Under the pieces are notes generated by a model, which was given only the letters and a program-made list of their open reading frames with translations, did no database searches and had not been told where the DNA came from. A stretch of 64,000 bases of DNA from Escherichia phage vB_EcoM_G2540-3: sequence record MK327944.1. One strand, given 5' to 3'. Of the stretch, positions 57,620-59,358 are shown in pieces. The translations under genes were made by a program, and so were the position numbers. Positions within the stretch are counted from its first letter, which is position 1. Every line of letters starts with the position of its first letter.

Positions 57620-58549
57620 ATGTCAGGATATAATTCTCAGAATCCAAAGGAACTCAAAGATGTCATTCTAAGACGTTTAGGGGCTCCAATTATTAATGTT
57701 GAGTTAACACCCGATCAAATTTATGATTGTATCCAGCGTGCCCTAGAATTATACGGTGAATACCATTTTGATGGACTTAACAAAGGTTTTCATGTATTTT
57801 ATGTAGGAGACGATGAAGAAAAGTATAAGACTGGAGTATTTGATTTAAGAGGTTCTAACGTATTTGCAGTAACTCGCATTTTGCGCACGAATATTGGATC
57901 AATAACGTCAATGGACGGAAACGCTACATATCCATGGTTTACTGACTTTCTTTTAGGAATGGCTGGTATTAATGGCGGTATGGGAACTTCTTGTAATAGA
58001 TTTTATGGACCAAATGCATTTGGAGCTGATTTGGGATATTTTACTCAGCTTACCAGTTATATGGGAATGATGCAAGATATGCTCTCTCCTATTCCAGACT
58101 TTTGGTTTAATTCAGCAAATGAACAGCTCAAAGTAATGGGAAACTTCCAAAAATACGATTTAATTATCGTAGAAAGCTGGACTAAATCATATATTGATAC
58201 AAACAAAATGGTTGGAAATACAGTAGGATATGGAACAGTTGGTCCACAAGATAGTTGGTCATTATCTGAACGATATAATAACCCAGACCATAATTTAGTA
58301 GGTCGTGTAGTCGGTCAAGACCCGAATGTTAAACAGGGCGCTTATAATAATCGTTGGGTGAAAGACTATGCTACTGCTTTAGCTAAAGAATTGAATGGTC
58401 AAATTTTAGCACGTCACCAAGGTATGATGCTTCCTGGCGGTGTTACGATTGATGGACAACGCTTAATAGAAGAAGCTCGATTAGAAAAAGAAGCATTACG
58501 TGAAGAATTATACTTGCTTGACCCTCCGGTGGGAGTGTTAGTTGGATGA
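57620..58549 (+). CDS. 13: Neck protein gp13, 309 aa
   Basis: 309 aa, synteny. Confidence 0.85.
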
Positions 58550-59358
58550 ATTATACTAAAATTTACAACTCTCTTATAGAAAGATCTCTTAAAAGAGGTC
58601 TTAATAAGAAAAAATTAGATTATTATACAGAATCACACCATATTGTCCCAAAATCCATGGGAGGAGATGACTCTAGAGAAAACAGGGTTTTACTGACAGC
58701 AAGAGAACACTATTTTGCGCATGAGCTTCTTTTTAAAATACACCGAAATTCTGAAATGGCTTATGCCTTAATAAAATTCTCCAAGGGTACAAAAGAGCAG
58801 AGAATTGTAAGTAAAGATTACGGATGGATTAAAGAGGAAACATCTAAAATTAGATCAGAAACAATTAAAAAGTTTTGGGCGAATCTATCACCAAATTTAA
58901 AACAGGAACGAATTAAAAAAGCCGGAAAAGGCATTAAAAAAACTAAATCTTTATGGACAGATGAAAAGAGAAAAGAAGTTAATGCAAATATTCGAAAAGC
59001 TTCTGTGAAATATTTGGAATCGTTATCAGAAAACGAAATGTTAGAATATAAAGAAAGATGTTCTAAACAGATGAAAGATTTTTGGTCTGAGCTTAAAAGT
59101 GACCCCCAAAAATACGAAAAGTATTTAAATAAACTATCTAAGGGTCTTGCAAAAGTCGAAAAGAGAAATTGCCCGCATTGCGGAATTATATGTGATGTAG
59201 GAAATTATGGAAAATACCACGGCGATAAATGCAAAGTTATCACGGGTGTATCTCATAGCAGAGAAAAATTAAAATGCCCGCACTGTTCTAAAATCATGGA
59301 TAAGTCTCACGCTAAAAGATACCATTTTGACAATTGCAAATTTAAGAAGGTCGAATAA
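58546..59358 (+). CDS. HNH homing endonuclease-like protein (Mob family-like), 270 aa, inserted between 13 and 14
   Basis: [12 protein letters not shown]-terminus, [25 protein letters not shown] block, two C-terminal CPHC/C-x-x-C pairs; ATGA overlap with gp13 stop. Confidence 0.7.

Follow-up and report, generated by a model that had tools for sequence, protein, structure and literature searches.

Genes 13 and 14 of Escherichia phage vB_EcoM_G2540-3, which encode two neck proteins, are separated by what is very likely a mobile homing endonuclease gene (HEG) of the Mob type, resident in this Tequatrovirus. As judged from its sequence and from those of its relatives, this is a genuine free-standing homing endonuclease gene, similar in kind to others already known and probably active, and we lean, with less assurance, toward the view that its homing site comprises the 3' end of gene 13 together with the 13/14 junction.

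The gene itself is ordinary, T-even phages being rich in free-standing homing endonuclease genes. It has already been annotated in public genomes, though apparently never characterized: the public records give it an automated name only, without a target site, an architecture or an analysis of mobility. Our literature searches brought up no description of a 13/14 endonuclease gene, reviews only counting the HNH genes of T6 (Petrov et al. 2010). What we add here is the chimeric make-up of the protein, a deeply conserved association of the element with the 13/14 site and a replicated prediction of a homing site with its immunity substitutions. The predicted site consists of the last 21 nt of gene 13 and the 13/14 junction, with eight substitutions in carriers, and the pattern is repeated in a distant phage lineage.

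The gene, its carriers and its protein

The window that we analyzed is 64,000 nt long (MK327944.1). In it, gene 13 (57620-58549, + strand) encodes the neck protein gp13, a head-tail adaptor of 309 aa (PHROG 211, head-tail adaptor Ad2), and aligns without gaps to gene 13 of T4. The endonuclease gene follows as an intact, free-standing open reading frame (ORF) of 270 aa (58546-59358, +), the ATG of which (58546-58548) overlaps the gp13 stop codon TGA (58547-58549) in an ATGA, in the context ...GTT GGA TGA ATT.... At its other end, a single nucleotide separates the stop codon TAA (59356-59358) from the ATG of gene 14 at 59360, the latter gene (59360-60130, +) encoding the neck protein gp14, a head closure protein of 256 aa (PF11649, T4_neck-protein, E 1e-138). 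A GAAGG at 59346-59350 (+), 9 nt before the gp14 ATG, falls within the final endonuclease codons and is a putative replacement ribosome-binding site for gene 14. The T4 junction reads TAA-T-ATG, with one base between the two genes, and since genes 13 and 14 are directly adjacent there, the net insertion amounts to 809 bp. A preliminary description of this DNA had reported a 270-aa ORF with a Mob-type N-terminus (including LLTAREH), an ATGA overlap with the gp13 stop and a gp14 ribosome-binding site in the last codons, and had taken the whole for an insertion between genes 13 and 14. We recovered each of these features, the ribosome-binding site as the Shine-Dalgarno-like GAAGG, and T4 and ∼90% of close relatives indeed lack the insert. 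The composition of the ORF gives no distinctive sign of foreign DNA, with a GC content of 0.31 to 0.32 against 0.29 to 0.38 in the flanks; it is A-rich only.

Among about 516 phage records that match the 13-14 region, 46 carry the ORF, with nucleotide identities of 96 to 100%, and these correspond to about 37 different phages when each GenBank/RefSeq duplicate pair is counted as one. The ORF overlaps the neck gene in every carrier record. T6 is among the carriers, its copy being annotated as "homing endonuclease" (YP_010067306.1), and further annotated copies occupy the same 13/14 position in fPS-2 (g158) and CrRp10 (cds116). Genes 13 and 14 are adjacent and the insert is absent in T4, RB3, RB14, RB18, RB51, AR1 and the rest of the records. 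The comparison of the 13-14 region across T-even genomes that the preliminary description had called for thus reveals a sporadic gene rather than one present universally. In a closer comparison, the junctions are identical in 11 carriers, in all of which (11/11) the 3' end of the endonuclease gene is invariant, and genes 13 and 14 are adjacent in 12 noncarriers. F1, FN and SHFML-26 have 812-nt copies in which a 1-nt deletion in an A7 run shifts the frame, so that the gene is annotated as two ORFs; the deletion reflects either decay or an error in sequencing.

A chance ORF is excluded by the matches of the protein, which scores 24.4 bits against Pfam HNH_4 at aa 25 to 52 (curated cutoff, 22), matches PHROG 655 ("homing endonuclease") from end to end with an E value of 2.7e-52 and has 426 homologues. 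BLASTP against the T4 Mob proteins gave 47% identity to MobD (E 2e-31), 43% to MobE (E 1e-23) and 37% to MobC (E 2e-14), in each case in the N-terminal domain and over ∼100 to 117 aligned residues, which bears out the earlier placement of the gene in the Mob family of HNH endonucleases. Orthologues of MobC and MobD are encoded elsewhere in the window. The HNH catalytic core (58630-58722, +; aa 29 to 59) sits within this Mob-type N-terminal domain, which spans aa 1 to ∼110, and its residues E29, H31, H32, N46, H55 and H59 do not vary among 45 aligned homologues.

The core is followed by a Lys-rich helical linker (58813-59154, +; aa 90 to 203) at the position of the NUMOD3-repeat region of the homologues, most of the 426 having PF07460 (NUMOD3) and/or PF01844. 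Pfam detects no NUMOD3 match in the vB_EcoM_G2540-3 protein at an E value of ≤0.1, and the linker is probably a diverged equivalent of that region. Two predicted zinc fingers of the form C-x2-C-x12-H-x3-C complete the protein, finger 1 at 59170-59232 (+; aa 209 to 229) and finger 2 at 59275-59337 (+; aa 244 to 264), which align to fingers 1 and 2 of I-TevIII, respectively. Finger 2 is the one conserved family-wide, with C244, C247, H260, D262 and C264 invariant in the 45 homologues. The C-terminal 78 aa are 33% identical to intact RB3 I-TevIII (E 2e-7) at the same C-terminal position, and the fingers are 34% identical to the T4 I-TevIII remnant; no significant similarity to I-TevIII was found at the N-terminus. 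The "two C-terminal Cys pairs" noticed previously are therefore present as Cys clusters, and the fuller account is of two CCHC fingers homologous to the I-TevIII module. Because the N-terminus is Mob-like while the C-terminus is unrelated to Mob proteins and homologous to the I-TevIII fingers, the protein is, as far as alignments can tell, a chimera of a Mob-type nuclease head and an I-TevIII-type predicted zinc-finger DNA-binding tail.

An AlphaFold (AF2) model with a pLDDT of 90.3 predicts a beta-beta-alpha core (strands 28 to 32 and 47 to 51, helix 52 to 66), five long linker helices with a pLDDT of about 90 and two finger knuckles, each a beta-hairpin and helix. Searches of structure libraries with the model returned weak matches to the HNH core only, and no solved structure matches the protein beyond these ∼50 residues.

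The recoded end of gene 13 and the movement of the element

We compared the loci of the 11 carriers and 12 noncarriers as two populations. Across these 23 genomes, 228 columns are polymorphic in the 1,701 nt of gp13 and gp14 flanks, and this polymorphism is entirely common to carriers and noncarriers, the values of pi(HEG+), pi(HEG-) and dxy all being about the same. All eight of the fixed differences between HEG+ and HEG- genomes lie at gp13 nt 910 to 929 (58529-58548), at nt 910, 912, 916, 918, 921, 924, 927 and 929, a clustering with a chance probability of about 3e-13. The tail reads CCR GTG GGA GTG TTA GTT GGA TGA in carriers versus CCA TTT GGA ATT TTG/T GTA GGT TAA in noncarriers. The recoding amounts to the replacements F304V and I306V, both in the gp13 portal-binding arm (residues 301 to 308, PPFGILVG), three synonymous changes and a change of the stop codon from TAA to TGA. 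Gene 14 has no insert-linked substitution among the 23 genomes. This insert-linked 3' end of gene 13 (58529-58549, +), which we propose as the left part of the mobile cassette, was absent from the observations of the preliminary description.

A search with a synthetic join of the recoded tail directly to gene 14 as the query found no recoded tail without an insert in about 430 insert-less records, the best identity being 95.9%. Scanning IMG/VR for the recoded tail GTGGGAGTGTTAGTTGG gave eight matches, all of them chance matches in unrelated repeats and hence uninformative.

The divergence of the cassette is decoupled from that of its flanks in both directions. Between vB_EcoM_G2540-3 and T6, gp13 differs by 6.4% and gp14 by 3.0% while the cassette differs by 0.2%; between fPS-2 and CrRp10, the corresponding values are 5.9%, 4.0% and 0.4%. 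The pair CrRp10 and sutha shows the opposite, with 0.9% in gp13, 1.8% in gp14 and 3.7% in the cassette. Differences in the flanks restart 18 to 30 nt to the left of the ATG and 13 to 37 nt to the right of the stop codon. By these comparisons, the element moves independently of its flanks, and a cassette only 0.2 to 0.4% divergent between flanks that differ by 3 to 6% points to recent transfer. Synonymous diversity (pS) agrees in being less than half as high in the endonuclease ORF (0.075) as in gp13 (0.20) and gp14 (0.15). The pN/pS ratio of the endonuclease is 0.10 overall and lowest in the fingers, at 0.036, which indicates that the protein is maintained under purifying selection.

The same site is occupied in other phage lineages. 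The three nearest homologues, which are metagenomic and 52 to 57% identical, all lie immediately upstream of a gp14 gene, and the link between the element and the 13/14 site is, on this comparative evidence, an old one. The flanks of one of these three contigs (L024) are 98.9% identical to those of the insert-less Shewanella phage Thanatos-1. Over the final 267 nt of gp13 the two differ at 11 positions, and 9 of these fall in the last 22 nt, PPFGILIG of the insert-less phage becoming PPMGIIIG in the carrier. The gp14 genes of this pair show three differences in 786 nt, all far from the junction, and the carrier likewise gains a GGGA and an ATGA overlap. A Moonvirus-like carrier (L025) and phage KM16, with flanks about 95% identical, provide a second pair, in which 5 of 16 differences lie in the last 13 nt of gp13 and all five are synonymous, a weaker signature than that of the Shewanella pair. 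In this Moonvirus-like lineage, the endonuclease gene has its own 9-nt spacer and no GGAG is created.

Expression, proposed homing and alternative explanations

No exact late promoter TATAAATA is present on the + strand between 51212 and 63305, so the ORF would depend on read-through transcription of the neck message. One-mismatch variants of TATAAATA inside the ORF at 59047 and 59124 are unremarkable, and there is a GC hairpin in the interval from wac to gene 13. Translation of the endonuclease is probably coupled to the termination of gp13. Two of the linked substitutions make a Shine-Dalgarno-like GGGAG (58531-58535, +), 10 nt before the endonuclease ATG, which can pair with a CCUCC at 58523-58527 in a local hairpin of -9.4 kcal/mol, compared to -6.7 kcal/mol for the T4 equivalent. 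We considered a hairpin hiding the ribosome-binding site, as known for mobE, and claim no such regulation here, the regional z score of -0.88 not being significant.

The preliminary description had held cotranscription and translational coupling to set this gene apart from most freestanding phage endonuclease genes, a contrast that does not survive comparison with T4, where mobC and mobE are arranged likewise. In T4, the mobC start and the nrdD stop share the same 4-nt overlap (43535-43538), and 1 nt is common to mobE and nrdA; mobE has been found by experiment to be promoterless and cotranscribed with nrdA (PMC2790892). Edgell's review describes seven of the free-standing endonuclease genes of T4 as cassettes that have no promoter and lie within polycistronic messages, and late expression is the rule for the T4 intron endonucleases (PMC2988022). 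Only the host operon, a late structural one, is somewhat distinctive.

We propose that transcription of the gene is by read-through within the late neck-gene message and that its translation, coupled to the termination of gp13, is low. During mixed infection, the zinc fingers would bind the conserved gene 13 3' end and the 13/14 junction of an insert-less phage, the proposed target being ...CCA TTT GGA ATT TTG GTA GGT TAA T ATG..., which encodes the gp13 portal-binding arm PPFGILVG. The enzyme would then act at the insert-less junction, either nicking it, like MobE, or cutting both strands as a dimer in the manner of I-TevIII, and recombinational repair from the carrier genome would copy the cassette, comprising the 21-nt recoded tail and the ORF. 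Carrier genomes would be immune because the insertion interrupts their site, in which 8 of 21 positions are also different; the recoded tail is probably a homing-site variant that protects the carrier from cutting. More tentatively, and with slightly less than even confidence, we suggest that the element has tracked this site across T4-like phages of E. coli, Citrobacter/Salmonella (Moonvirus) and Shewanella, each time with its own cleavage-immune codons, and that F304V and I306V were thereby forced on an essential interface of head and tail in the T-even phages.

The recoded tail could be read differently even if the gene is a homing endonuclease gene: the tail might serve expression or be left over from a divergent donor, with the cleavage site in another part of gene 13, in gene 14 or farther off. 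Such a reading draws on the fact that two of the eight changes create the GGGAG and another creates the TGA of the ATGA, on the parallel gain of a GGGA and an ATGA overlap in the carrier related to Thanatos-1, and on SegG and MobE, characterized free-standing enzymes that act away from their own insertion sites (PMC2790892; PMC2993671). The Moonvirus-like changes do not fit it well, being clustered in the last 13 nt of gp13 and yet synonymous only; with a spacer of its own and no GGAG gained, this lineage speaks against expression as a general explanation. Across lineages, almost every one of the last seven codons is altered at its wobble position, beyond what expression needs. Further, the absence of any other HEG-linked substitution within 900 nt on either side means that carriers would have no protection at a distant site, except at one lying beyond genes 13 and 14. 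We therefore regard a cleavage site elsewhere as rather unlikely and keep the end of gene 13 and the junction as the favored target.

It is considerably less probable that the gene is a decaying, inactive remnant. With the gp14 ribosome-binding site inside it and the gp13 stop overlapping its start, the gene might be kept only because its deletion would harm the expression of genes 13 and 14; a review notes that embedded regulatory signals favor retention (PMC2988022). The frameshifted copies of F1, FN and SHFML-26 are in keeping with decay, and T4 itself holds defunct relatives in the mobA fragment and the truncated I-TevIII. All the catalytic and metal-ligand residues are intact and invariant, however, and neither the pN/pS of 0.10 (0.036 in the zinc fingers) nor the near identity of cassettes between divergent flanks, a mark of recent transfer, is expected of a remnant. 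Least probable of all, and in our view very improbable, is a domesticated HNH protein that helps the terminase in packaging, in the manner of the HNH proteins encoded beside cos-phage terminase genes, or serves as a weapon against competing phage or host DNA. The gene does belong to an operon of late structural genes and precedes the terminase genes 16/17 by two genes, and HNH proteins adjoining terminase genes are common in other phages (PMC3592412). The ∼90% of close relatives that lack the gene, T4 included, are nevertheless fully viable, its genealogy is decoupled from that of its neighbors and its closest characterized relatives are Mob proteins and I-TevIII rather than terminase-associated HNH proteins. 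On this distribution and homology, we rejected the terminase helper, while the exclusion of competitors' markers is the population-level face of homing and calls for no separate mechanism.

Should the preferred reading of a mobile gene that homes to the end of gene 13 and the 13/14 junction hold, the poorly studied Mob family would gain one more characterized enzyme, and the protein would be a natural case of domains shuffled between two endonucleases, one free-standing and the other encoded in an intron. A mobile element would also be imposing amino acid replacements on an essential neck protein, in its portal-binding arm, so that a selfish element would drive change in a structural protein while riding on late, translationally coupled expression. 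Phage engineers who combine Tequatrovirus phages in cocktails would have to reckon with this locus as a hot spot of recombination during mixed infection.

Comparison with known endonucleases

The HNH homing endonucleases with NUMOD3 (PF07460 and PF01844) and the phage nicking enzymes of the I-HmuI type resemble the protein described here in combining an HNH domain with an extended DNA-binding tail, and differ from it in the NUMOD3 motif itself, which is below Pfam detection here.

The T4 proteins MobD, MobE and MobC share its N-terminal domain, with the pattern MNYxKIYxxLI...HHIxP...GG.D...N.V.LT..EH..AH, and their genes are likewise free-standing, promoterless and sporadic among T-even phages. 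The overlap of the start codon with the upstream stop is also common to mobC (with nrdD, as an ATGA) and mobE (with nrdA). MobC, MobD and MobE differ in having an unrelated C-terminal half without the double CCHC fingers, and their genes are part of early/middle operons for nucleotide metabolism on the opposite strand, whereas the gene described here belongs to the late neck cluster. MobE nicks nrdB at a distance (Wilson & Edgell 2009, PMC2790892).

RB3 I-TevIII is nearly the same length (269 versus 270 aa) and has the same order of an N-terminal HNH domain, a linker and two C-terminal zinc fingers, the latter needed for DNA binding (Robbins et al. 2007, PMC1865063). [quoted passage not shown] I-TevIII resides inside the group I intron of nrdB and has a different HNH domain, whereas the present gene lies between two intact genes. 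Given this location outside an intron and an N-terminus without significant similarity to that of I-TevIII, the endonuclease is not an I-TevIII-like member; what the two share is the DNA-binding module.

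Mob-family genes and the neck module

Beyond the HNH homing endonuclease gene lying between neck genes 13 and 14 (window 58546-59358, plus strand), the window contains two Mob-family HNH genes, one encoding a MobC-like protein of 210 aa that is completely identical to T4 MobC (11520-12152, minus strand) and the other a MobD-like protein of 259 aa that differs from T4 MobD by one residue (21981-22760, minus strand). The 13/14 endonuclease is paralogous to these two proteins in the N-terminal nuclease domain only.

A second HNH ORF, coding for 198 aa with a single CCHC finger, was found between gp14 and gp15 (1621-2217) in the metagenome contig SRR33991139_568291, which itself carries a homologue of the 13/14 endonuclease. 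Since this ORF occupies the 14/15 gap, gp14 is flanked by endonuclease genes on both sides in this contig. Serratia phage LC53 has an annotated "Mob-like putative homing endonuclease" at the same 14/15 position, as do several Klebsiella phages. Given the contig ORF and these annotations, the neck module therefore appears to be a hot spot for HNH/Mob-like endonuclease elements.

Upstream, the wac/13 intergenic region of the window harbors a perfect GC-rich hairpin, GGGGCCGCAAGGCCCC (57589-57619), immediately 5' of the gene 13 ribosome-binding site and with no T-run downstream. Candidate roles for it are in the stability or processing of the RNA, or in attenuating transcription that reads through into gene 13, the endonuclease gene, and gene 14.

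Gene 14 start and frameshifted copies

The mechanical ORF list started gene 14 within the endonuclease gene, at TTG 59327. The T4 sequence ruled out this start and placed the true one at the ATG at window 59360, making 59327-59359 a spurious upstream extension. In the record nearest to the window, Escherichia phage vB_EcoM_G9062 (MK373779), a 55-bp tandem duplication within gene 14 (∼3920-4030 of the comparison record) causes a frameshift, and gp14 is annotated as truncated. Gene 14 of the window lacks the duplication, which probably arose through faulty assembly of the G9062 sequence.

The endonuclease gene copies of phages F1, FN, and SHFML-26 are 812 nt long and lack one A in the A7 run at ORF nucleotides 385-391, a loss that breaks the gene into two ORFs in the annotation. 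The missing base may mark the onset of decay of the element, or it may be a sequencing error at the homopolymer.

The 13/14 junction across genera

In Salmonella phage KM16, a Moonvirus with no insert, the gp13 stop overlaps the gp14 start as ATGA (401-404 of the comparison record), whereas T4 has TAA-T-ATG, and thus the junction that the endonuclease family would target varies by genus.
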